DNA of 64,000 nt from an uncultured Methanomicrobiaceae archaeon (lineage in GTDB: Archaea; Halobacteriota; Methanomicrobia; Methanomicrobiales; Methanoculleaceae): positions 352,001 through 416,000 of the forward strand of contig CAWGXH010000003.1 of the NCBI GenBank assembly GCA_963826525.1. Direction: 5' to 3'. Positions 6,880 through 19,288 of the stretch are shown here, in pieces. Under the pieces are notes generated by a model, which was given only the letters and a program-made list of their open reading frames with translations, was not told the DNA's origin and did not search any database. Position numbers and translations under genes: made by a program. Within the stretch, counting starts at the first letter, position 1; every line of letters begins with the position of its first letter.

Positions 6880-9622
6880 ATGCTCGAAGAAGAATATACG
6901 CTTGACTATTTTAAATCCCAGGGCCTTGAGCGGAAGGTATGCAAAAGGTGCGGGGCGGCGTTCTGGACTCGGGACCCGGAACGGGAGTTCTGCGGAGACG
7001 CTCCTTGCGTACACTACGACTTCATCGGCAGCCCGGTCTTCACCCCCCACACCGTCGACGAGATGCGCGAAGCATTTCTCTCCTTCTTTGAGCGCCACGG
7101 CCACACCCGGCTCGAGCGCTATCCGGTGGCCGCCCGGTGGAGAGACGATATCTACCTGACGATCGCGTCCATCGCAGACTTCCAGCCCTATGTGACGAGC
7201 GGCGTCGTCCCGCCGCCGGCAAACCCGCTGACCATCTCGCAGCCCTGTATCCGGCTCAACGACCTCGACTCGGTGGGCAGGTCCGGCCGCCACCTGACGC
7301 AGTTCGAGATGATGGCGCACCACGCCTTCAACACCAAAAACGAGGAGATATACTGGAAGGACGAGACGGTCGCTCTCTGCGAGGAGTTCATCGCATCTAT
7401 CGGCGGCGATCTCGACGCCGTCACCTATAAAGAGCACCCGTGGATGGGCGGCGGGAACGCAGGGCCTTCCGTCGAGGTGCTCATCGGCGGGCTCGAGGTC
7501 GCGACGCTCGTCTTCATGAACCTCGGGCGGCAGAAGACCGCTCACCCGCCGGTCGAACTCGGAGGAGTTCCCTACTATCCGATGGATCTCCGTATCGTCG
7601 ATACCGGATACGGGCTCGAACGGTTCGTCTGGGCGTCCCGCGGTTCGCCGACGATCTACGATGCGGTCTTCCCCGAGATGGTGAGCCGCCTGATGCACTC
7701 CGCCAACCTCGAACACCTGCTCGATAACGACGAGTTCACGACGATCCTCGGGATGAACGCCCGGTTCGCCGGCGTCATGGATATCTCCGGGCCGAACCTG
7801 GCCATCCTTCGAAGGAGGGTGGCGGAGGCGATCGACGTTCCGATCGAGAAGCTCGAACGGATGATCGGCCCGATCGAGAAGGTCTACGCCATCGCCGACC
7901 ATACCCGGTGCCTCGCCTATATGCTCGGCGACTGCATCGTCCCGTCGAACGTCCGCGAGGGATACCTCGCCCGCCTGGTGCTCCGCCGGACGCTCCGGAT
8001 GATGAACGATCTTTCGATGGAGGAGGATATCGCCGACCTCATCGAGCAGCAGATGCGGACCGTGGGGATGGATGCCTTCGAGCAGGACCTCGACGTTGTC
8101 CGGGAGATCGTTGCGAACGAGGTCGGCAAATACGCGACCACGCTCGAACGCGGAACCCGTACCGTCCAGAAGCTCGCGAAGACCTACACGCAGAAGCACG
8201 AGCCCGTCCCTCTCGCCGAGGTGATCACCCTCTACGATTCTCACGGCATACCGCCCGAGACGGTCAGAGAGGTCGCCGCGGCCGAGGGAGCCGTCGTCGA
8301 GGTGCCCGACAATTTCTACTCCCTGATCGCCGATCTCCACTCCGAGTCGCAGAAGGAGGTAGGAGCGGATCCGCTCGCCGCGTACCGTGAGCGGGTAGAT
8401 TCACTCCCGCCGACGAAGAAACTCTTCTACGACCAGACGGCGGATATCGAGTTCGAGGCGATGGTTCTCGACTACTTCGACGGCTACATTGTTCTGGACC
8501 AGACCCTCTTCTACCCGGAAGGCGGCGGTCAGCCGTCCGATACCGGCACCCTCGTCACCTCGGACAGCATGGTCCGGATCGACGAGGCGATCAAGGTCGG
8601 CGAGGTTATCCTGCACCGCACGAGAGGCGGGGTCCTGAAACGGGGAGAGCGGGTCAAGGGCATGGTCGACGAGGAGCGGCGCTGGTCGCTGATGCGGCAC
8701 CACACGGCGACGCACGTCCTGCTCCACGCCGCGAAGGAGGTGCTCGGAGCACACATCCACCAGGCCGGTGCCCAGAAGGGAAGCGAGACCTCACGGCTTG
8801 ATATCAGGCACTACCGCCACATCACCCCCGAGGAACTGAAGAGGATCGAGGTCCAGGCGAACCGTATGGTCATGGCCGACCTTCCGATCTATATCCGCAC
8901 CGAGGAGCGCACCCGGGCGGAGCAGAAGTACGGGTTTACCCTCTACCAGGGAGGCGTGCCTCCCGGACGGGAGATCAGGACGGTGCAGGTCGGCGGAGAC
9001 GTCCAGGCATGTGCGGGGACGCACTGCCGCACGACCGGCGAGGTCGGGCCCATCAAGATCGTCACCGTCGAGCATATCCAGGACGGTGTCGAGCGGATCG
9101 TCTTTGCTGCGGGTGTGGCAGCGATCCACTATATGCAGCACGTTGACGCTCTCCTCAGCAGCGCCGCCGACGTGGTGAGCGTGCAGCCGGAGTATCTCCC
9201 GGCGACCGTGACCCGGTTCTTCTCGGAGTGGAAGGAGCAGAAGAAGGAGATCGAGCGGCTGGCGCAGAAGGTCGTCGAGCTCGAGAAGCAGAATCTCGAA
9301 GGGGAGGTCGTCGGCGGCGTGCAGATCGTGGTCAAACGGATCGATGCGGCCGCCAAAGAGCTCGTCGCGCTTGCGGGCAGCATCTCGGATGCGGGCGGGG
9401 TCGCCCTCCTCGTCGGCGTGAACGAGAAAGCGACCGTCGTTGCGACGTCCGGGAACCCGGCCGTCAACGCGGCGGATATCGTCAGGGAAGTCTCGGGGAT
9501 CCTCGGCGGCCGGGGCGGCGGGAAACCGAACCTCGCACAGGGCGCCGGGCCCGATACTTCCCGCGTCGAGCAGGCGCTCGAGGCTCGGGCGAAAGCAGAT
9601 CATCGAAGCACTCCATGGCTGA
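6880..9622 (+). CDS. alaS: Alanine--tRNA ligase (indel near the C-terminus)
   Basis: YPVAARWRDD, SQPCIR, FEMMAHH, DTGYGLER, HHTATH editing domain, GGRGGGK; true end RKQIIEALHG in the 9440..9622 frame. Confidence 0.97.
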
Positions 9623-10292
9623 AGACGTTGTTGTACTCCAATCCGGCGACGAGCGGGCGCAGAGGATCGCCAAAGCCATGGCGAGCCAGACCGCCAACGA
9701 TATGATCCAGGCGTTCGGCGGCAGATCGATGACCTCGACGGAGGTCGCCGGACACCTCAATATCCCGGTGACCACCGCGACCTACCATATCGAGAACCTG
9801 CTCGACGCCGGGATCCTCGAGGTGGCCGATACCCGCTGGAGCAAGAAGGGGCGCGAGGTCAAGATCTACGGCCTCACGAACCAGGTGCTGATCATCGCTC
9901 CGCCGGTGAGCGATCTCCGGTCGGTCCTGCAGAAGTACACGGCGCTTTTCGGTGTCTTTCTCATTATGAGCATGGCGCTTTTCGGCGTCCTCCCCGTCCT
10001 GCTGCCGGACATCGGCGTGCCGGACGACGGCGGCATGCTCTCGACCCGGGGGTCGTACGCGCCGTCTATCGCAGGCGCCGGGGAGAATGCGGAAAAGGTC
10101 GTCAGTACGCCGGCGCCCGTCGACCAGGCGTCCATCGTCCCGCCGGTTCCCTTCGCATCCCTGACGATCCACGATCTCGTGATGGCGTTCTTCTTCGGCG
10201 GGTGCCTGGTGCTGTTTGCCCTGATGCTCTACGAGCTCCACTACTGGTGGCGCTCGTCACCCGGCTACGCCCTCAGGAGAAAAGACGAGTAA
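9615..10292 (+). CDS. ArsR-type HTH regulator with two transmembrane segments
   Basis: IAKAMASQTA...TSTEVA...YHIENLLDAG, WSKKGREVKIY; two hydrophobic helices follow. Confidence 0.85.
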   Translation: MAEDVVVLQSGDERAQRIAKAMASQTANDMIQAFGGRSMTSTEVAGHLNIPVTTATYHIENLLDAGILEVADTRWSKKGREVKIYGLTNQVLIIAPPVSDLRSVLQKYTALFGVFLIMSMALFGVLPVLLPDIGVPDDGGMLSTRGSYAPSIAGAGENAEKVVSTPAPVDQASIVPPVPFASLTIHDLVMAFFFGGCLVLFALMLYELHYWWRSSPGYALRRKDE

Positions 10293-10459: not shown

Positions 10460-10491
10460 CCATCAAATCATGACCCTCTCTGATTTGATGG
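10460..10491. repeat. Perfect 11-bp inverted repeat with a 10-nt spacer
   Basis: CCATCAAATCA-tgaccctctc-TGATTTGATGG at the 5' break of the toxin gene. Confidence 0.85.
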
Positions 10492-10519
10492 TCCTTCTTC
10501 TCTTCCACGGGTACCCTCC

Positions 10520-12192
10520 GGCAGCGCCTTCATATCTTCAATTCCGAGTCCCTCTTTAATCTATATCGACGGCGTCTACCGCGGTAAGCGCACGCGCCTC
10601 TCGTTCTCAACAACATCCTCGCAGGGAACCACACGATTGAAGCAAGGAAAGATGGGTACACTCCCGCTACCCAGAATCTACGGATCTTTGCCGGGAGTAC
10701 GTCATATGCTCGCTTATATCCGGTTTACGCTGGTGAAAGCGGCACAATTATTGTAAACTCCTCACCCCCCCGGCGCAACCGTATCCGTCGACTGCATACC
10801 GGTCGGATTTACATCAGAGGAGACCGGCATCTTTACTCGAAACTACGTCACCGTCGGATCGCACCTCGTCGACGTGGCAAAAGAAAATTATAGCGCATAT
10901 AACGAACTCGTTTACGTTGCAAACGGCACAACGGTCGTCGTAAATGCGTCTCTCGATCTGGCGGACGACGGCGACGGTCTCAACTTCACCTGATGAAAAT
11001 GGCTTTAGAGACGGCTTCGGCAACTGGCACGTCACCGATCCGAACCTCATCGACACCGACGGCGACGGCCTCTCCGACGGCTACGAGGCGGGATATCTCA
11101 TCACCGTGGGCGGAAAGGATACCACAAGCAGCGGAGCGACCCGAACCTGGTGGATACCGACGACGACGGGCTCGACGATTTCATGGAGGATTACCTGCGC
11201 ACCGACCCGTATGATCCCGAAACCGATCACGATCTCATCAAAGACGGGGAAGACGACGAACCTCTTGTCCCCATATATCTCCGGTATGCAACGGATCGGA
11301 TTCGTGACGAGATTGCGCTCCGGCTCGGTGCCGTCTTCGGAGAAACCGGCCTGAAGGGCGAAGCATGTAACGGATTGATTGGCGGAGACGTTTTTGCATC
11401 CACGCCGGCGTACGTTGCCGGCTGGATCATTTCAGGCCTCGCGGCAATTGGAGACGTCCGTGATTTCCTGTATGCGGCATCGCAATTCGATACTATCGGG
11501 GCAACACTCACCGGGCTGGGTATTGTCCCATACTTCGGCGATTGCGAAAAGACTGCCGCCGATATCGCAAAATGGATCGGAAAATATCCTGAAGGCATAC
11601 GTCCTCTGGCGAAATTGTTGGTCGAACAGAGAATCATTGATATTTTCGACGAGAGTGACCGGCTGAAGATCATCGACGACTTCTTCCCGGCGCGGGCGGA
11701 CGGCGTGAAGGTCGGGACGTATCTGAACACGAGAGTGATGACCTCGGTGTGGACGACCTTGCGAAGATGATGGGCCGCGGCGCCGATCTCTCCGACGTTG
11801 TTCATGTTATCAAGGTTGGAGATGATGCGATACCGCTTACGGCGACGAGGGAAGGCCATTATGTCGCTCGTCACGTTACCGGAACGGAAGGCGTTGATGA
11901 CCCCACCTCGTTTTTCCCGACGACAGAACGCGTCATTAGAAATGGCGAGCCGAACCCGGGTACTTCGTCAATGACGCCGGAGGCTATGCAAGCACAAATC
12001 ATCGACTGGATCAAGGAAGCACTACCTCGGGATCCAACTCTAACTGAGTGGCCAAAACAAAAGAAAATCGTAACTTTGGATCTTGAACCTGAAGTTGCGG
12101 GAGTTGGACGAATACAAATAGTTGTTCAAGGAGATACTGGAGTACATACAGTCATTCCAATACATGGCTCTCAGGTTTATAAGGTACGCTAA
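10520..12192 (+). pseudogene. Polymorphic toxin: 2 PEGA domains, DxDxDG Ca-binding repeats, pre-toxin (TG-like) segment, C-terminal putative RNase tip; 5'-truncated and split over several frames
   Basis: Manual translation: IYIDGVYRGK..GNHTIEARKDGY; IIVNSSPPGATVSVD..GSHLVDVAKENY; DTDGDGLSDGYE; DTDDDGLDDFME; IGDVRD..LGIVPYFGD; GHYVARH..SFFP..IQIVVQGDTGVHTVIP. Confidence 0.75.
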
Positions 12193-12226
12193 CGGCCAAT
12201 GGTACCCAACACGGTAGGAGATAACA

Positions 12227-13276
12227 ATGTTCAGAATCGTCTGGGATAAAGAGGATGTCGAGCGGGGAATCAAATCCGGAACCGGCGAAGCCGGCCCCCT
12301 CGGTTTTTTAACGCCTATACAGGTTTACGCGAACGGCGTTGATATGTCGGGGCTTGAAGCAGCTCCAAAAGGAAACATTACCCATTTTGATGGTCTCTTC
12401 TTAGAATTCTTCTACATATTCCATTCCATAGACCCGGAGAACCTGCAGGAAGAGAAGTTCCACATGAGTTCAAGCGTGAAAAACCGTGTTGATGGTGGGA
12501 GTTTCAATCTCTACGTCTATCATGATAAAGAATCTGACATCCTGACTTTGAAATACCGCAACTTCATGCATCCCGAATACCGTATACTGGAGATCCCGTT
12601 GAAAGATTTCACGGAAGGAATCCTTCAATCGGCAACCGAAATGCTTGAAGGGGTATTACGGGTCGCTCCGGAATTTGAGGGTGATGTTAACTATATTGTG
12701 CTAAAAGAGGATATGGAACTCATTCGAAACTGGTATCAGGAGCGGTACGGAACAGCGACCGTTCCACGTCCTCTTATTAAGAGAGGATCTTCCACGAAGA
12801 CGAAAGAGGGGCGCATCCGCTGGATCGGCGTTGAGGATGCTGCCGACCCGGGGATGATCGACTGCGTGCAGAAGATCCTCGACATCACGTATCCCGACGA
12901 TTACCTGGCGTGCGTACAAAAATACTCTCTGGGGTTCCCCTACCCGTACAACATCATCGTCAATGAAAGGCTCAAGGGGGGGAGGAGCCAGTTTGTCCGC
13001 CTCCGTGGTTTTGATCCGGAGAAACCGATGTCGTACGTATTAACCCTCTACTACGCCTTAAATTGCCCGGCACCGGGCATCAATGCTTATCTGCCGGACA
13101 ACGTTGTCCCCTTTGCCGATGCTTTCGGTGACGACAGACTCTGTTTCGATTACCGGGAAGGTTTCCCTCCGAAAGTGGTGGACCGGAAATCTCACGAACT
13201 GGACCCAGATAGATCGGTGATACTTCTCTGCAACTCATTTACGGAGTTGTTTGAGATCATGGAACGGTGCGAGTGA
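12227..13276 (+). CDS. Putative immunity protein: unknown N-terminal domain fused to SMI1/KNR4 (SUKH)
   Basis: Directly after the toxin, GGAG RBS; C-terminal half LDITYPDDY..VPFADAFGDDRLCFDYREG..CNSFTELF. Confidence 0.8.
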   Translation: MFRIVWDKEDVERGIKSGTGEAGPLGFLTPIQVYANGVDMSGLEAAPKGNITHFDGLFLEFFYIFHSIDPENLQEEKFHMSSSVKNRVDGGSFNLYVYHDKESDILTLKYRNFMHPEYRILEIPLKDFTEGILQSATEMLEGVLRVAPEFEGDVNYIVLKEDMELIRNWYQERYGTATVPRPLIKRGSSTKTKEGRIRWIGVEDAADPGMIDCVQKILDITYPDDYLACVQKYSLGFPYPYNIIVNERLKGGRSQFVRLRGFDPEKPMSYVLTLYYALNCPAPGINAYLPDNVVPFADAFGDDRLCFDYREGFPPKVVDRKSHELDPDRSVILLCNSFTELFEIMERCE

Positions 13277-13308
13277 ATGGCTGAATGACTGGAAGAATGA
13301 GGTGTACC

Positions 13309-13745
13309 GTGAAAGATATTCAGTGGAGCAATACTGAGGAGAGACGGAACGACTTTGATGAACTGATTCCCTGCATCGAGAAAGCATTTCGTCTGACCCT
13401 GCCGGACGATTTTAAACTCTGTGCGATCGAAAACGGTGGAGGGAGCCCTGTTCCGTGTCGCTTCGACGTCGGGGACGAGAAAGGGAAGACGCTCGTGAGA
13501 CTGTTGAGTCTCGACCCGAGATCGAAGGACTTTTTCTGGAAGCATTATGCAGCCGTGGGATGGTATCCGCGAGGTTATGGCCGGGATCGTACCCGATCGC
13601 GCAGGAGCGGGAAGGCAACTACATTAGCCTGGATTACGAGAAGGGTTTCCCGCCGAGGATCGCGTATGTGATCGGAAGTGTGAGACCCCGGCGGAAAGTT
13701 GTCATATCGGACTCCTTTACGGCGTTTCTGGAGACGCTTTACTGA
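13309..13745 (+). CDS. SMI1/KNR4 (SUKH) immunity protein (one frameshift)
   Basis: IEKAFRLTLPDDFK..NGGGSP | YPIAQEREGNYISLDYEKGFPP..SDSFTAFLETL. Confidence 0.8.
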
Positions 13746-13769
13746 AGCGGAACCCGACGGTGTAGGTGA

Positions 13770-13901
13770 GAGAGGAGAATCCCCACTGGACTGTATTATC
13801 GTGAGATGGTTCCGCCAAACGGTCAGTATATCAGGGTTGCAACGAATCCCGATGGGAGGATCTTATCGGCATACATGGTCAAAAAACTGCCAACGGTGTG
13901 A
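13770..13901 (+). pseudogene. Orphan toxin C-terminal tip fragment
   Basis: Start-less frame GLYYREMVPPNGQYIRVATNPDGRILSAYMVKKLPTV*, stop 5 nt before the next ATG. Confidence 0.5.
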
Positions 13902-13906
13902 TTCCT

Positions 13907-14374
13907 ATGGAGACTGAAAAAATTAATTTTTGGATCAAGCAGGGATATTTCCACCTCTCATACGGTGAAGTATCTCTCACGCGGAGTAAAAGTGGAAACG
14001 ATCGGATCATGGATTTTTGCGACTATCTGATGGAGGCAATCCACGATGATTGCATCCCACTCCTCCTTCGCGGAGAGACCTGCAGGATCATGCTCCTTGA
14101 CGATCCGCATGTCCTGTTTTTTGTCCCGAAAGGGGATATGGTCACTATCATCCTCGAGTCCGAAGTTACGGAATGGTTTGAACCCAGGAGCGAGTTTACG
14201 GCCCCCATGAAAGAATGGTTCAGGGCGGTACAGCAGGTAACTCTCGACCTGATTCAGGAGATGCAGGATTTTCCGGGGAAATACTATAAACTCGTGCCGG
14301 TTTCATCAATCATCGAGAAATATCATATCACCGAGAAGGTGCTTCGGGAAGCGGGATACCTGAAGGAGGGATAG
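13907..14374 (+). CDS. Putative orphan immunity protein
   Basis: FTAPMKEWFRAVQQVTLDLI resembles LEIPLKDFTEGILQSATEML in the N-terminal domain of 12227..13276. Confidence 0.55.
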   Translation: METEKINFWIKQGYFHLSYGEVSLTRSKSGNDRIMDFCDYLMEAIHDDCIPLLLRGETCRIMLLDDPHVLFFVPKGDMVTIILESEVTEWFEPRSEFTAPMKEWFRAVQQVTLDLIQEMQDFPGKYYKLVPVSSIIEKYHITEKVLREAGYLKEG

Positions 14375-14489
14375 AATTTTTACATCTGCCCGGCAGGACA
14401 CCGGATTGAGCGGACAGCGGAAAGGAGTATGGGAACAGTTCAATTTCCTCCCTGTAAACGAATAACAAACCTCCAAGGATAGGCATCGC

Positions 14490-15272
14490 ATGAAACCGAA
14501 TGCACCAGAGCGCCGGACTCAATCCGGCACCGACAAAAAACCGGGAAGCCATGGGAATCACTGGGGATGCGTCACGCAGTCCACGGACGAGATCATCCAA
14601 TCGGTGGAGTGGGCGTTGAAGGAGGCGGAAACCGCCGACGTCCGTGAACGGAACGGTCGCGAGATCGCCGCGTACATCCCGGAGTCCCGTTCTCTCACGA
14701 CGTGTGCCATAACCCTCGATCGATCGGTCTCTACCGGCTACCCGGTCGCCGTGGACGGCGTCGTCCACGAGGTGACGGTACAGCGCGTCGAAGAGTGGGC
14801 GAACGAACTCGAAGGACAGGTGGTCGGCTCGATCGGCGACGCTGCCCTGGCTTTCTTCGACACCCGGTACTACCGGAACGGCGATCGTTACCGGGAGGGG
14901 GACAGGCATCTCTTCGCCCTCGCTGCCTTTGCCTACGTGCTGCAGAAGGCCGAACCCCGCACGATCACGGATGCGGAAGGGAAGGAGCACTCGACCCGGA
15001 ACATGGCTGCATACCGCCCGTTCCCGCAGGGCGACGTCGACGACTTCGCGTATCAGTCGCTGGTAAAGAGCGTCGAAACCGTTTCGTTCTGCGGAAAGAC
15101 CGTCTACCGACTCACGGTCACGCTTTTTCGGCTGCCGGATGAGGGCGGCGATTACCGCGATGTCGACATCACGCTGTATGCCGCTGAACATGTGACCGGG
15201 GGCTACGCTCCCCGCGTGGGTGACGATATCATGGGAATTCTCTGGCTGCAGGGCTCCCTTTCTCCCGGATAA
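14490..15272 (+). CDS. Hypothetical protein (GxHW...FFDT...WLQG)
   Basis: Intact 260 aa ORF within the immunity array. Confidence 0.7.
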   Translation: MKPNAPERRTQSGTDKKPGSHGNHWGCVTQSTDEIIQSVEWALKEAETADVRERNGREIAAYIPESRSLTTCAITLDRSVSTGYPVAVDGVVHEVTVQRVEEWANELEGQVVGSIGDAALAFFDTRYYRNGDRYREGDRHLFALAAFAYVLQKAEPRTITDAEGKEHSTRNMAAYRPFPQGDVDDFAYQSLVKSVETVSFCGKTVYRLTVTLFRLPDEGGDYRDVDITLYAAEHVTGGYAPRVGDDIMGILWLQGSLSPG

Positions 15273-15300
15273 CTGAAGAGCAGCGCAGGGGTCTCCTCTC

Positions 15301-15445
15301 GACGACACGTATCGGGATACCGACGACCCCGATCCGCTGACCCGTGCAGCAACCGACGAGATCAACCTCGCCAGGATCGCGCGCGAGATCCTGGCCGGGG
15401 CGACCTATAGGCTGCCCGACGGCTCCTTCTCCTGGCTGGTGACCG
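15301..15445 (+). pseudogene. Second toxin-trunk remnant
   Basis: DDTYRDTDDPDPLTRAATDEINLARIAREILAGATY..GSFSWLV resembles DHDLIKDGEDDEPL...EIALRLGAVFG of the main toxin. Confidence 0.45.
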
Positions 15446-15542
15446 TTTCGCCAGATTGTTCCAGTTCCCTCCTCAACCGAAACTCGGTCATAGAATAGAT
15501 GAAGAGGCAGAGCACCATGATCATCGCTAGCGCCTGGATGCG

Positions 15543-15845
15543 TTAAAAAATCGGGGAACAGATAGAGACGCCGTTCGATGAACCCGAGGCCGTTGAGCAC
15601 CAGTGCTTTGGCAACCTGAGTATGAGTGAGGTGGTGACGGGTTTTGAAGATCGCGCAATTGATAACCCCGGCAATACCGAGGGAATCGTAGGCATCGGCG
15701 ACGATGCCGAGGTGACCGGCAGAGAGGATCGATTCGTCATCGAAACCGCCGATCAGGGGCATACCGATTGATTTCGGCTAAAAGTACAAGGATCGTGCGG
15801 TTTTCAATTATTCAAAGGAAGGATTCGGTTACTGCGGATGATGGG
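15543..15845 (-). mobile_element. IS1634-family remnant (DUF4277 transposase N-terminus plus left end)
   Basis: GHLGIVA..LGIAGVIN..AKALVLNGLGFIERRLYLFPDF; end CCCATCATCCGCAGT on the minus strand at 15845-15831. Confidence 0.8.
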
Positions 15846-15913: not shown

Positions 15914-17209
15914 TTACATCCTTTTGCGGACGACGAAGATCAGCCCGAAGACTGCAAGAGCACCGAGTGCCGCGAAGGGCAGTGCACCGGACTGGGTCGG
16001 GTTCGCGATCGGGTTTAAGGATGCCGAGACGTAACTGGTGCTGCCGGCATTCACCTGCACGCTGTCCGACCAGTCCTGGTACCCGGAGACCTGCACTTTT
16101 ACCGTGTGCGATCCGGGGGAGACATCGGTCAGGGTCAGGGGGGTAATGCCCTTGTAGGCGTTGTCAAGGTAGATGTCCGCACCTGCAGGCGAGGACGAGA
16201 CCGATATCGAACCGGTTGGGCCAGGCGGGAGCGGGGTCATCGCCGCGGAGACGGGGGTGGTCGTGCTGGACTGGACAGCAACGGACGTCGAGTAGTCCTG
16301 GTACCCGGAGAGCGACAGCGCCACGGTGTGGGTTCCCGGGGTGACGCCGCTGACGACGAGCGCCTGGGTAGCGGAGGTCTGTCCCTGGTAGACACCGTCG
16401 ACGGAGACGCTTGCACCGGTGGGTGACGAGCTGACGGAGATATAACCTGGGTTCTGATCGGGAATCGGGCTCATCTGCGCGTTCACGTACGAGGTGACGC
16501 CGGGGGAGACCGTAACGGTCGACTTCCAGTCATAGAAGCCGCTCAGGTCGAGCTCGATGACGTGGCTCTTTGCGGAGACGCTCGAGAGGGTCAGGGGAGT
16601 CTTACCCTTGTAAGCGGCATCCATATAGACGTAGGCACCCGACGGGTTCGAGGAGACGACGACCGCCCCCGGCTGCGCGATGGCCTGCAGCGGGAAGAGG
16701 ATGGTCGACGTCTGGCCTGCACTCACCGAGACGGTCGTCGAGTAGGGCTGGTAGCCGGGCAGGTCCGCTTCGATCTGGTAGGTGCCGGGGGTGATGCTGC
16801 TGATCGTCAGCGGGGTGACGCCGCGGTAGTTGCCGTTCAGGTAGATGGCAGCTCCCGAAGGCGTCGAGGTTGCATAGATCGAACCGCTGGTTGCCGTCGG
16901 GTTGAGCGTGACGTAGACGTCGACGGTCTCTCCTGCTGCCGGTTCGCCCGGAAGGCTTCCGGCTGCCGATTTGTAGCCCGACATCTCGAGCCGGTAGGTC
17001 TGGTAGGGGCTTCCCGTCGTGTAGACCGGTACCGAGAGGACACCCTGCGCGATCTGGCCCTTGTAGCCGCCGTCGAAGTAGACGGATGCACCGTCCACGT
17101 TACAGTGAACGGTGTACCAGCCTTCGCTCCCGCCGATACTCGCTGCCGAGGCACCGGCACAGAGGACGAGCAGGGCGAGTCCGAGAATTATAGATCTGGT
17201 TGTTTTCAT
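15914..17209 (-). CDS. Multi-PEGA cell-surface protein with signal peptide and C-terminal TM/basic anchor
   Basis: Repeated SSPxGAxxYxDxxYKGxTPL; ends ALPFAALGALAVFGLIFVVRKRM. Confidence 0.9.
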   Translation of the reverse strand: MKTTRSIILGLALLVLCAGASAASIGGSEGWYTVHCNVDGASVYFDGGYKGQIAQGVLSVPVYTTGSPYQTYRLEMSGYKSAAGSLPGEPAAGETVDVYVTLNPTATSGSIYATSTPSGAAIYLNGNYRGVTPLTISSITPGTYQIEADLPGYQPYSTTVSVSAGQTSTILFPLQAIAQPGAVVVSSNPSGAYVYMDAAYKGKTPLTLSSVSAKSHVIELDLSGFYDWKSTVTVSPGVTSYVNAQMSPIPDQNPGYISVSSSPTGASVSVDGVYQGQTSATQALVVSGVTPGTHTVALSLSGYQDYSTSVAVQSSTTTPVSAAMTPLPPGPTGSISVSSSPAGADIYLDNAYKGITPLTLTDVSPGSHTVKVQVSGYQDWSDSVQVNAGSTSYVSASLNPIANPTQSGALPFAALGALAVFGLIFVVRKRM

Positions 17210-17436
17210 GCTTCTCTCTCCGAAAAATACAATTATGAGGTATCGTTTTTGCTCTATTATTCCTTTCTATTAATTCTCTTGCAAATTCGTGCTTAATACC
17301 GGATATTGAGGGATTTGCTCGCAGATCTGAGGCAACCCGGGTATTGTATCCGCCCCCGCTCTTGCATCGGCTATATGGGCATGTGGTGCAGGAACAAATG
17401 AAAACAGTAATTATCTGCACCACTGACCTGTTCTGC

Positions 17437-19288
17437 ATGGTGCGATATTCGGTCACTATGCACGATGCCCTCGCCGGGAGGATCGATGAGGCGCGTGAAA
17501 CCCGCGGTCTCTCCCGTTCGGAGTGGATCAACGAGGTCTGCAGATCCTTCCTCGACGGTGCACCCACCTTCGGCGACCAGCGAGCGATCGCGGCCCCACC
17601 CGGCAACGGGGGTTCGACTCCTCCGCAGAAGCATGCCATGGGCGATTACGATGAGACCTGTGCGAACTTCTCGATCCACGTCCCGAAGTTCTTCAACTTC
17701 GGGTTCGACGTCATCGACCGGTGGGCTGAGACCGACCGGAACAAACTCGCCATGATCTGGGTGAACCAGGAGGGAGAGGAGAAGAAGTACTCCTTCCGGG
17801 ATTTGAAGAACCTCTCGAACGGAGCGGCAAATATTCTGCTCAAGTACGGGATCATGAAGGGCGACCGCGTCATGCTTATGCTCCCCCGGGTGCCGGAGTG
17901 GTGGATATTCGTCCTCGCCCTTACGAAGCTCGGTGCGGTCTTCTGCCCCTGCCCGACGATGCTGACGCCGAAAGACATCAAGTACCGGGTCAATGCCGGG
18001 AAGTTCAAGATGGTCATCACGAACAGCGAGAACGCGGAGAAGGTCGATGCGATCTGCGACGAGTGCCCGACCCTGACGAAGCGGTTCATGGTGGACGGTG
18101 CACGGCAGGGCTGGGCGAGCTACCCGCACGAGATCGACTATCCCGCCCGGGTATCGCACCACTCGGTGAGCATGCCCGTCGAGAGGAAGACGAAGGCCAC
18201 CGATCCGATGCTGATCTACTTCACCTCGGGGACGACCGGGCAGGCGAAGATGGTGCTGCACGATCAGAGCTACCCGCTCGGCCATATCGTGACCGCCGGA
18301 CTCTGGCAGGACGTCAACGAACACGATCTCCACTTCACCTTCTCGGACACCGGGTGGGCAAAGTGTGCGTGGGGCAAGATCTTCGGACAGTGGATCCAGG
18401 GTGCCTGCCTCTTCATCTATGATATCAAGGGACGGTTCGAGGCGACGGAGCTCCTCCCCCTCATCGAGAAGTATGAGGTCACCACCCTCTGCTGCCCCCC
18501 GACGGTCTACCGGATGCTGATCCTCGCCGACCTCGACAAGTTCGATTTCCGCGACCTGCGCCACTGCTGCAGTGCGGGCGAGCCGTTAAACCCCGAGGTG
18601 ATCCGGGTCTGGAAGGAGGGCACGGGCCTGACTATCTACGAGGGCTACGGGCAGACCGAGACGGCCTGCTGTGTCGCGACGTTCCCGTGCATGAAGAATA
18701 AGCCGGGCTCGATGGGAAAACCGTCCCCGGGATGGGATGTCGAACTCCACGACGACGACGGCACCCCGGTCGGTGTGCACAAGGAAGGAAGGATCGCGGT
18801 CAAGCTCAATCCCCGGCCGCCGGGGCTCTTCGTCGAGTACCCTGGACAACCCCGAGGCGAACCGGGAGTCGTTCGTGAACGGCTACTACTATACGGGCGA
18901 TAAAGCCTACATGGACGAGGACGGCTACTTCTGGTTCGTCGGCCGTGACGACGATGTGATCAAGTCGTCCGGGTACCGGATAGGCCCCTTCGAGGTCGAG
19001 AGCGCACTCCTCGAGCACCCGGCGGTGCAGGAGTCTGCCGTCGTCGGGTCGCCCGATCTCCTCCGCGGGATGATCGTCAAGGCGTTCGTCGTCTTAAACT
19101 CGGGATTCGAGCCCTCCGAGTCGCTGGTGAAGGAGCTGCAGGGGTACGTGCGTCGCACGACCGCCCCGTACAAGTATCCCCGGTCGATCGAGTTCGTGAC
19201 GGAACTGCCAAAGACCCTCTCCGGCAAGATCCAGCGGAACGTCCTCCGGGAGCGGGAACTGCAGAGAAGCGCGAACAACCAGGAATAA
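17437..19288 (+). CDS. Acyl-CoA synthetase (AMP-binding) with an N-terminal ribbon-helix-helix domain (frameshift near 18840)
   Basis: [32 protein letters not shown]; N-terminus [26 protein letters not shown]. Confidence 0.9.

Follow-up and report, generated by a model that had tools for sequence, protein, structure and literature searches.

A probable relic of a PEGA/TSP3-stalked polymorphic toxin system, with its immunity genes retained, in a methanogenic archaeon

What does the gene island at positions 10514-15440 of the window encode, and is it still a weapon? The window is a stretch of 64,000 nucleotides (contig CAWGXH010000003.1, positions 352,001 to 416,000 of the forward strand) from an uncultured Methanomicrobiaceae archaeon, whose genome (3.06 Mb in 16 contigs, 87.6% complete) encodes McrA. 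A first-pass annotation, made from the sequence alone, had described here a toxin gene on a PEGA stalk followed by immunity genes, and had proposed both that the toxin copy may be a silent donor and that the system is undescribed. Polymorphic toxin systems are described as largely missing from archaea, apart from a few cases in methanoarchaea and haloarchaea, and the SUKH family, which appears alongside Tox-EndoU and others, is documented as providing immunity (Zhang 2012, PMC3482391). We find that the island is most probably the relic of a polymorphic toxin system of the Methanomicrobiales, in which the toxin has decayed while the immunity genes have been kept.

No single frame is open throughout positions 10484-12217. 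Read in turn, the three forward frames give one collinear protein, which consists of two PEGA domains, TSP3 (DxDxDG) repeats, a pre-toxin module and a tip of 125-134 amino acids (aa). The gene (10514-12217, +) was delimited by this three-frame reading and by tblastn with P0008, an intact relative of 606 aa that matched the window with E values of 1e-66 and 8.5e-70, well past anything chance would give; the pieces are collinear with P0008 and the tip is 90% identical. The coding path runs from frame 2 to frame 1 at ~10590, back to frame 2 at 10765-10772 (a run of seven cytosines, C7), to frame 0 at ~10985, to frame 2 at ~11120, to frame 1 at ~11733 and to frame 2 at ~12183, six frameshifts in all. 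Programmed frameshifting and another genetic code were ruled out by the differing sign and context of the six shifts and by the ordinary stops. The first-pass annotation had held that the structure is readable only by joining frames and had named the motifs PEGA-PEGA, DxDxDG, GDVRD..GIVPYFGD, HxxxRH, SFFP and TVIP; the three-frame reading and the collinearity with P0008 bear this out, and all of the motifs lie where it had placed them. It had taken TVIP (12148-12159) as terminal. That motif is indeed present, but the last frameshift at ~12183 had been missed: the true stop is at 12215-12217, 10 nt before the ATG at 12227, because P0008 ends ...QVYKYANGQWYPTR, which is encoded here in the next frame.

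The two PEGA domains occupy 10520-10957 (+). The first (~10520-10701) is divided by frameshift 1, and its pieces match PF08308 with E values of 0.012 and 0.0019 (16.0 and 18.5 bits); the second (~10763-10957) matches with an E value of 5e-7, at 30.0 bits above the cut-off of 20.8. P0008 likewise has two PEGA stretches (E 2.5e-28). The calcium-binding-like repeats at 10964-11170 (+) comprise DDGDG (10964-10978), DTDGDG (11052-11069) and DTDDDG (11153-11170). TSP3_bac (PF18884) matches this window piece at 20.8 bits (E 3e-4), under its cut-off of 25, and full-length relatives at 42-92 bits; the sole NCBIfam match of the region, the TSP3-rich CglD, falls on the same repeats. The pre-toxin module (11279-11814, +), conserved among the trunks, is marked by GD[IVL]RD followed after ~20 residues by P..GD, the motif starts lying 25 apart; in the window these are GDVRD at 11450-11464 and GIVPYFGD at 11519-11542. 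PT-TG is an example of a known pre-toxin domain. Pfam gave no family for the window segment 11126-11767 at E<=1, nor for the pre-toxin part of four full-length relatives at E<=0.01, in searches whose HMMER filters remove most matches above an E value of about 0.1, and no NCBIfam family covers the segment. The trunk meets the tip at ~11814 (..VVHVIK|VGDD..), where nucleotide homology to the relative G284 stops.

At its 5′ end the gene is incomplete. A start codon was looked for in the coding frame and none was found, homology to the relatives starts only at 10514, and the copy is without both the signal peptide and the ~1100 aa N-terminal trunk of intact relatives. The first-pass annotation had also noted the missing start codon and signal peptide. 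We refer to such copies as headless.

Are the tip and its neighbours exchangeable, as expected of a polymorphic toxin? The TSP3/pre-toxin piece (11126-11767) found matches, frequently more than one in the same locus, in 33 of the 401 genomes sampled from the class (15/53, 7/224, 0/54, 0/20, 7/12 and 3/37 genomes in families f1 to f6, respectively), and had no match in two other genomes of the same genus. Where matches stand in tandem, the leading open reading frame (ORF) encodes 1300-1800 aa, with a hydrophobic, signal-like N-terminus (judged by reading the sequences), Ig-like domains, TSP3 repeats and two PEGA domains, and it is followed by ORFs of 300-570 aa that start within the PEGA/TSP3 region; leading and following ORFs alike contain the GD[IVL]RD and P..GD pair. 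Arrays of this kind, a full-length gene plus headless cassettes, were found in five genomes (G035, G118, G188, G112 and G072). Non-nested loci contained 44 pre-toxin ORFs, from which eight that were incomplete or shorter than 200 aa were dropped; the last 125 aa of the remaining 36 fell into 10 tip clusters. The next gene belonged to the matching cluster for tip family A in 7/7 cases, for D in 5/5, for E in 3/3 and for cluster 4 in 2/2 (two identical loci). Cluster 0 joins B and C tips: the B tips (2/2) are followed by one downstream cluster and the C tips (11/11) by another, one C tip being without a downstream ORF in its locus. These counts are inflated and not independent, because several of the loci are near-identical. 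In hhalign comparisons tip families D and E were unrelated to A, B and C. A search for related loci with P0008 returned one locus, G112:C10.

Thus homologous trunks carry differing tips, and the downstream cluster changes with the tip, as the first-pass annotation had anticipated; a single C-terminus with no variable downstream gene is not what is found. Together with the headless cassettes after full-length genes, this speaks for a polymorphic toxin/immunity locus on a PEGA/TSP3 scaffold.

Comparison with G284 gives a view of how the present tip arrived. Window 11035-11814 is 85% identical to the G284 trunk end (783 nt by blastn), and window 13791-15316 is 90% identical (1535 nt) to 8423-9956 of the G284 locus L033, where it covers the last ~110 nt of the tip and two downstream genes. 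The G284 counterpart of 13791-13901 is the end of an uninterrupted tip. The two homologous blocks are 1976 bp apart in the window versus 204 bp in G284, and the extra window DNA consists of tip A and two SUKH-bearing genes. Three other genomes (G072, G035 and G112) have tip-A/immunity cassettes to which window 12152-13752, spanning the tip end and both genes, is 68-75% identical. The tip-A cassette therefore recombined in at the trunk/tip junction. The G284 full-length gene has an indel of its own at ~7650 of L033 (contig C49), +1 relative to the window (GGAGGA vs GG-GGA), which parts its 1431-aa trunk ORF from the ORF of pre-toxin module and tip.

What is left of the displaced tip lies downstream. 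A 3′ remnant of tip B (13791-13901, +), ending ...PPNGQYIRVATNPDGRILSAYMVKKLPTV, has a stop that overlaps the GTG of the next gene. That gene (13898-14374, +) is intact, encodes 158 aa and is the putative immunity partner of tip family B: in both G284 and G035 it stands after family B tips, and G118 has orphan copies of it.

The incoming tip, family A, spans 11815-12217 (+) and is cut by frameshift 6 at ~12183. It contains HYVARH (11857-11874), SFFP (11908-11919) and TVIP, and eight residues are invariant in 27 aligned tips (H15, R19, H20, G23, T31, F34, P35 and G118, numbered from position 11815). On this 27-sequence alignment AlphaFold2 returned a model with a pLDDT (predicted local distance difference test) of 93.8 and a predicted template modelling score (pTM) of 0.87. 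Searched with a profile of eight family A tips, a set of 1.84 billion proteins yielded 47 representatives at E<=1e-3, of which 10 were also at E<=1e-30. The strong matches are short headless cassettes and a 1583-aa Methanoregula protein; the weak ones are the C-termini of acidic surface proteins of 1100-1700 aa and of one subtilase-bearing protein. Two repeat proteins that match profile positions 25-74 many times (P0016 and P0021) were regarded as spurious. Source labels of the tip and immunity relatives include Methanoregula, Methanofollis sp. W23, Methanoculleus sp. and Methanomicrobiales archaeon.

Directly downstream of the tip, on the same strand, lies an intact gene of 349 aa (12227-13276, +), the fusion of an unknown domain to SMI1/KNR4 that the first-pass annotation had described. 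SMI1_KNR4 (SUKH-1, PF09346) covers residues 206-343 at 42.9 bits against a cut-off of 25.4 (E 8.8e-11), and residues 1-200 have no Pfam match. We call the N-terminal domain (residues 1-~177) ImmA. In alignment A2 the ImmA domain occurs alone (173-191 aa), fused to SUKH (345-356 aa) or in tandem (384-391 aa), and it directly follows a family A tip in 7/7 relatives, with or without SUKH. The cognate immunity for the window tip is for that reason most likely ImmA rather than the SUKH domain. SUKH as the immunity mark of the locus, as first proposed, thus holds for the presence of the domain but probably not for its pairing with this tip.

Prediction of a complex between the tip and the first 195 residues of the 12227 protein points the same way. 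The score was 0.70 (runs of 0.82, 0.66 and 0.70) and the best of three controls reached 0.00; at least 82% of contacts agreed among runs, with a partner pLDDT of at least 82. The mark used is reached by 58/80 solved complexes and 2/110 mismatched pairs, a calibration that is only rough here because our own alignments were used. Within the tip, the predicted interface takes in residues 19-20 and 27-32, where the conserved His, Arg and Thr lie. The score, a model's confidence rather than a measurement, supports binding of the tip by ImmA. A profile search of 5.8 billion proteins with the ImmA-type immunity protein gave 14 relatives, which are unnamed or annotated as SMI1/KNR4 family or hypothetical. 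Protein Atlas on the N-terminal domain returned Bacillota hypothetical proteins (best 0.82) and DUF7878 (0.78), below the trust level and without Pfam backing, and Foldseek of the immunity-protein model against the PDB gave nothing at E<=0.001. The SUKH half of this model has a pLDDT below 50, because only four alignment rows cover it.

The second SMI1/KNR4 gene of the first-pass annotation is also present (13285-13745, +) and is itself frameshifted, at ~13584 in a G run. Its two frame pieces match Pfam with E values of 0.03/0.0021 and 2e-4/0.0053 (15.4 and 22.4 bits), both under the cut-off owing to the split; with the homologue from G072 as query, tblastn breaks into two frames at the same place. 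The gene pairs with the preceding gene in G072 too, and its region is 68-75% identical by blastn to loci L035, L034 and L037. In L035 (G072:C1, 1013-6179, -) immunity genes pile up: behind one family A tip stands an array of four ImmA-type genes, two being tandem-duplicated forms, together with one SUKH gene and one unknown gene of 171 aa.

Low GC (guanine plus cytosine) content marks the tips and immunity genes as foreign cassettes. GC drops from ~0.63 to ~0.50 across 10500-14500, and with values of 0.48-0.53 the tips and immunity genes lie below the genome's 0.60; such a drop recurs in 4/5 other loci measured, the flanks themselves being low-GC in L035.

Taken together, these results suggest a model in which the intact system would be a protein of 1300-1800 aa with a Sec-type signal peptide, arranged as Ig-like domains, TSP3 repeats, two PEGA domains, further TSP3 repeats and the pre-toxin module, and ending in an exchangeable toxin tip of ~130 aa; the next gene would encode the matching immunity protein. 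Headless cassettes, each with PEGA, TSP3 and pre-toxin parts, another tip and its immunity gene, would follow, and recombination in the shared trunk would swap the expressed tip. At the window locus, a cassette of tip A, the ImmA-SUKH gene and the second SUKH gene entered at ~11814. Tip B was displaced and put out of the frame of the trunk, its last ~110 nt and its partner gene 13898-14374 being left behind. The toxin would then have gathered its six frameshifts while 3/4 downstream genes remained intact. The ImmA domain is predicted to neutralise the tip by covering the conserved His/Arg site. Since the toxin is broken and downstream genes are intact, the present function of the island, if any, would be protection from the toxins of neighbours and not attack.

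Is the decay real, and is the locus a toxin system at all? Several points weigh against the reading of the island as a decayed toxin system. The window tip had no match in Pfam at E<=1 and none in NCBIfam, the EndoU/PBECR matches of its relatives all lie under the cut-off (14.8-16.5 bits vs 25.3), the co-variation counts are inflated as explained, and it is by inference that we speak of export, display at the surface, dependence on contact, toxicity, cleavage of RNA and binding between tip and immunity protein. Further, ordinary genes of this genome carry homopolymer frameshifts, so that some of the toxin shifts could be assembly errors, the candidates being those at the C7 run (10765-10772), at GG (~12183) and, in the second SUKH gene, at its G run. 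The main gene of G284 is also frameshifted inside; the metagenome consensus is least reliable at both polymorphic toxin loci, and strain heterogeneity could have degraded it. Finally, the soil run may be the source sample, and its two short contigs are the only independent DNA. Were all of the frameshifts errors, the real DNA would be an intact headless cassette like P0008, acting as a silent tip donor or as a small toxin with an internal start. Homopolymer frameshifts in ordinary genes and an assembly that is 87.6% complete in only 16 contigs speak for this, 3/7 island shifts lie in short runs (C7, GG and the G run), and intact headless cassettes of 300-570 aa are the rule among relatives; P0008 and the ImmA-SUKH protein P0061 each come from a 57,605-bp contig of the same source, which suggests, but does not show, that they share one contig. 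The background, however, is ~1 shift per 8-10 kb, of homopolymer type: an acyl-CoA-ligase-like gene (17344-19288) is split at a C run and 1/6 housekeeping-type genes (~8.1 kb) at a G run, in a comparison with relatives' genes at >=55% identity from which a transposase, locus L041 of the own genome and shadow ORFs on the opposite strand were left out. With six shifts in 1.7 kb the toxin gene is at ~28 times that rate, and no shift falls in the immunity genes of 1.05 kb and 0.48 kb within this low-GC island. C7 is the only clear homopolymer among the six, with GG at 12183 perhaps another; relative to G284, shifts 4 and 5 (-1 at ~11120 and +2 at ~11733) fall in mixed sequence. The soil metagenome was the only DNA run listed (0.08 of sampled words), with no RNA run listed. 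In an independent assembly of that run, a 165-bp contig is identical over 10678-10815, repeating the C7 site exactly, and a second short contig is identical over 13589-13782; the coverage of the soil contigs is confined to these two intervals and a few TSP3 snippets, and the other frameshift sites lie outside. The genome's only full-length trunk (C4:1290580-1296534; L040 and L002), ~37-43% identical, is itself broken into ten or more frame pieces. We regard real decay as likelier than assembly error and an intact cassette as improbable; the 5′ truncation holds whichever way this question falls. The proposed silent donor accordingly gives way to a decaying relic, a better fit to a 5′-truncated copy with six frameshifts in a genome whose only full-length trunk is broken too.

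If the relic is that of a polymorphic system, its tip need not have been an RNase, nor even a toxin. A BECR-type RNase, as the first-pass annotation had supposed, is somewhat favoured for the tip. Toxin RNases make up 24/30 top entries among the VIA matches of the tip. EndoU_bacteria (PF14436) gave three independent sub-threshold matches, to P0047 (E 0.037), to one member of alignment A3 (0.17) and to the G284 tip B (0.012), those of P0047 and tip B aligning to the C-terminal half of the profile; PBECR3 gave one in a relative (E 0.012). By hhalign, the probability of a relationship is 60.6% (E 8e-5) for tips A and B and 99.1% for tips B and C. The invariant H, H and T followed by [ST] match the EndoU-clade pattern in the available part of Zhang 2012 (PMC3482391). 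A toxin with another target (membrane, cell wall, protein or nucleotide), in which the likeness to BECR is a common arrangement only, would account for the Foldseek matches to ketosteroid-isomerase-like and other unrelated folds at similar E values and for the lack of any nuclease family matched above cut-off by sequence; Foldseek of the tip model against the PDB gave nothing at E<=0.001, and in PDB sequence searches profile A1 found only rubrerythrin-type noise (E 0.06-1) and profile A3 no match. In view of the enriched toxin RNases, the EndoU matches and the residue pattern, we hold such a target to be rather unlikely. Far less likely still is a variable surface-protein or self-recognition module like VARTIG, in which the tip would serve binding or recognition and have the downstream proteins as partners instead of antidotes. 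Archaeal envelope proteins do typically carry PEGA, Ig and TSP3 domains, a surface protein with five PEGA domains adjoins the island at 15914-17209, no toxin family was recognised by Pfam in any tip examined, and the VARTIG paper, as far as available (PMC8416519), describes an organisation like that of polymorphic toxin systems without toxins. Against this stand the SMI1/KNR4 immunity domains, a small domain with invariant His/Arg/His/Thr whose best structural matches are RNase toxins, a sister tip family with a GEID...Q.K motif that reads as PD-(D/E)xK nuclease-like, and the predicted placing of the immunity domain over the conserved His/Arg site. A decayed polymorphic toxin with retained immunity genes thus remains the preferred reading of the island.

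The rest of the island and its surroundings are as follows. An intact ORF of 260 aa and unknown function (14490-15272, +) has host-like GC (0.62), occupies the same position in G284 and is 86.5% identical to its counterpart there; neither it nor the 158-aa gene has a Pfam or NCBIfam match. A start remnant of a further trunk or orphan cassette (15321-15440, +) is 75-76% identical by blastn to trunk regions of L013, L014 and L016, has no Pfam match and is cut by an insertion sequence fragment. The latter, a transposase gene fragment with the DUF4277 N-terminal domain only (15229-15762, -; PF14104, E 6.3e-15), forms the right edge of the island. Antisense ORFs at 11227-11874, 13192-13545 and 14328-15365 have no Pfam match and were taken as shadow ORFs. 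Within the toxin gene end (12176-12226), TTTATAA stands ~45 nt and AGGAG ~7 nt 5′ of the 12227 ATG; judged by motif, these could be an internal archaeal promoter and a ribosome-binding site, from which the immunity gene would be expressible without the toxin.

Directly 5′ of the headless cassette, a gene at 9618-10289 (+) encodes an ArsR/HTH_20-type helix-turn-helix (E 4e-9) with a hydrophobic C-terminal half. On the other side, the intact gene at 15914-17209 (-) probably codes for an ordinary envelope protein adjoining the island: its 431 aa begin with a signal-like stretch, contain the five PEGA domains (E 1.2e-69) and finish in a hydrophobic anchor. In the gene at 17344-19288 (+), which reads as acyl-CoA/AMP-ligase-like, two overlapping frames meet at the C run at 18838-18845 (...FVEY | LDNPEA...YYYTGD...), a homopolymer-like indel. 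Elsewhere in the genome, the 408-aa housekeeping-type gene at C4:~167345, frameshifted in its G run and read as a putative S-adenosylhomocysteine hydrolase, lies within ~1 kb of a neighbour that in G284 is found across the toxin island, where a hisF-like gene is present too. The G284 island looks like an insertion at that site, because our genome keeps both neighbours ~1 kb apart. The broken trunk at C4:1290580-1296534 matches residues 1-1409 of the G284 protein and is followed by a different tip, with a D...E.K pattern that may be PD-(D/E)xK nuclease-like.

The tip superfamily reaches beyond these loci. The pattern W.HI..RH..G...T.FFP.G...[FY]P..G also terminates giant acidic surface proteins (P0027, P0028, P0031, P0032, P0041 and P0044) that carry MG2, CARDB and CarboxypepD_reg domains, and one protein of 1653 aa with a subtilase domain; several of these proteins show a similar.[IV]RD...P..G..GD pre-toxin stretch. 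One ImmA-SUKH protein, P0062, is 66% identical to that of the window and comes from an 8.6-kb contig labelled as a Massilibacteroides metagenome-assembled genome; the label reflects either a binning error or transfer into bacteria.

How new is such a system? The proposal that it is undescribed does not stand, since systems of this kind have been predicted in archaea by Zhang 2012 (PMC3482391, available part) and, according to the available part of PMC8416519, by Makarova 2019 (mBio). The former gives RHS-stalked toxins of Methanosarcina acetivorans and PVC-delivered toxins of haloarchaea; the latter is cited for predictions in many archaea, RNases and DNases being the commonest tips. As of 2021 the predicted archaeal systems had not yet been experimentally characterised (PMC8416519). 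The searched text of Zhang 2012 contains neither a PEGA-stalked class nor this tip or immunity family, and a literature search for polymorphic toxins together with the PEGA domain returned none. The trunk type, pre-toxin module, tip family and ImmA are thus without a name in the literature examined, and Makarova 2019 may already list these genes. The mechanism itself is that of classical polymorphic toxin systems and is not new. The evidence seems to us evenly poised on a broader proposal, that the Methanomicrobiales (Methanoculleus, Methanofollis, Methanoregula and relatives) may have their own class of Sec-exported, PEGA/TSP3-stalked toxins with an archaea-specific pre-toxin module, a so far unclassified, EndoU-related HxxxRH...TxFFP RNase superfamily that would be shared with giant haloarchaeal surface proteins, and ImmA as a new immunity domain, used alone, duplicated or fused to SUKH.

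If the model is correct, the window records the displacement of a cassette, the loss of a weapon and the keeping of its shields, in effect an acquired defence against kin in a methanogen community. Inter-archaeal antagonism is almost unstudied. The comparison with G284 offers a clear case of tip displacement, with old and new immunity genes kept after decay of the toxin, and it bears on how strain-level competition shapes methanogenic communities. With its intact relatives, the locus provides a concrete, testable pair in culturable methanogens, a tip of ~130 aa with three candidate catalytic residues and an immunity domain of ~180 aa with a predicted interface. The window copy being a relic, the value lies in the family rather than in the window gene.

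How does the locus compare with known systems? In common with the bacterial Rhs, CdiA, MafB and LXG classes, as presented in the available text of PMC3482391, it has a long protein of many domains, predicted to be secreted and ending in an exchangeable toxin, an adjacent downstream immunity gene that changes with the toxin, headless cassettes downstream, an old tip displaced by trunk recombination, SUKH immunity domains and low-GC cassettes. Unlike in those classes, the trunk is built of Ig, TSP3 and PEGA domains in place of RHS or filamentous haemagglutinin repeats; a dedicated secretion system was not recognised here, nor was a HINT domain or a protease; the pre-toxin module matches no Pfam pre-toxin family; and the host is an archaeon with a proteinaceous envelope, in which the window copy is headless and frameshifted. 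With the archaeal predictions (PMC3482391 and PMC8416519, both in part) it shares the archaeal host, the comparative-genomic basis and nuclease tips as the commonest kind. The tip itself may resemble RNase toxins such as CdiA-CT of Yersinia kristensenii (5e3e), the YxiD tRNase of Bacillus subtilis (9v8i; PMC12700104), CdiA-CT of E. coli 3006 (6vek) and the EndoU toxins (PF14436). These are small alpha+beta tips in which an N-terminal helix with catalytic residues precedes an antiparallel sheet, each neutralised by a dedicated immunity protein; the window tip is predicted to follow this plan and differs in having no Pfam membership and in its HxxxRH...TxFFP...[FY]PxxG motif, specific to this family. 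VARTIG of Thermococcales (PMC8416519) is alike in that a large archaeal surface protein with Ig domains has a hypervariable C-terminus and is followed by genes that vary; as described in the available part of that paper it is without recognisable toxin or immunity domains, whereas the locus reported here has SUKH domains and nuclease-like tips.

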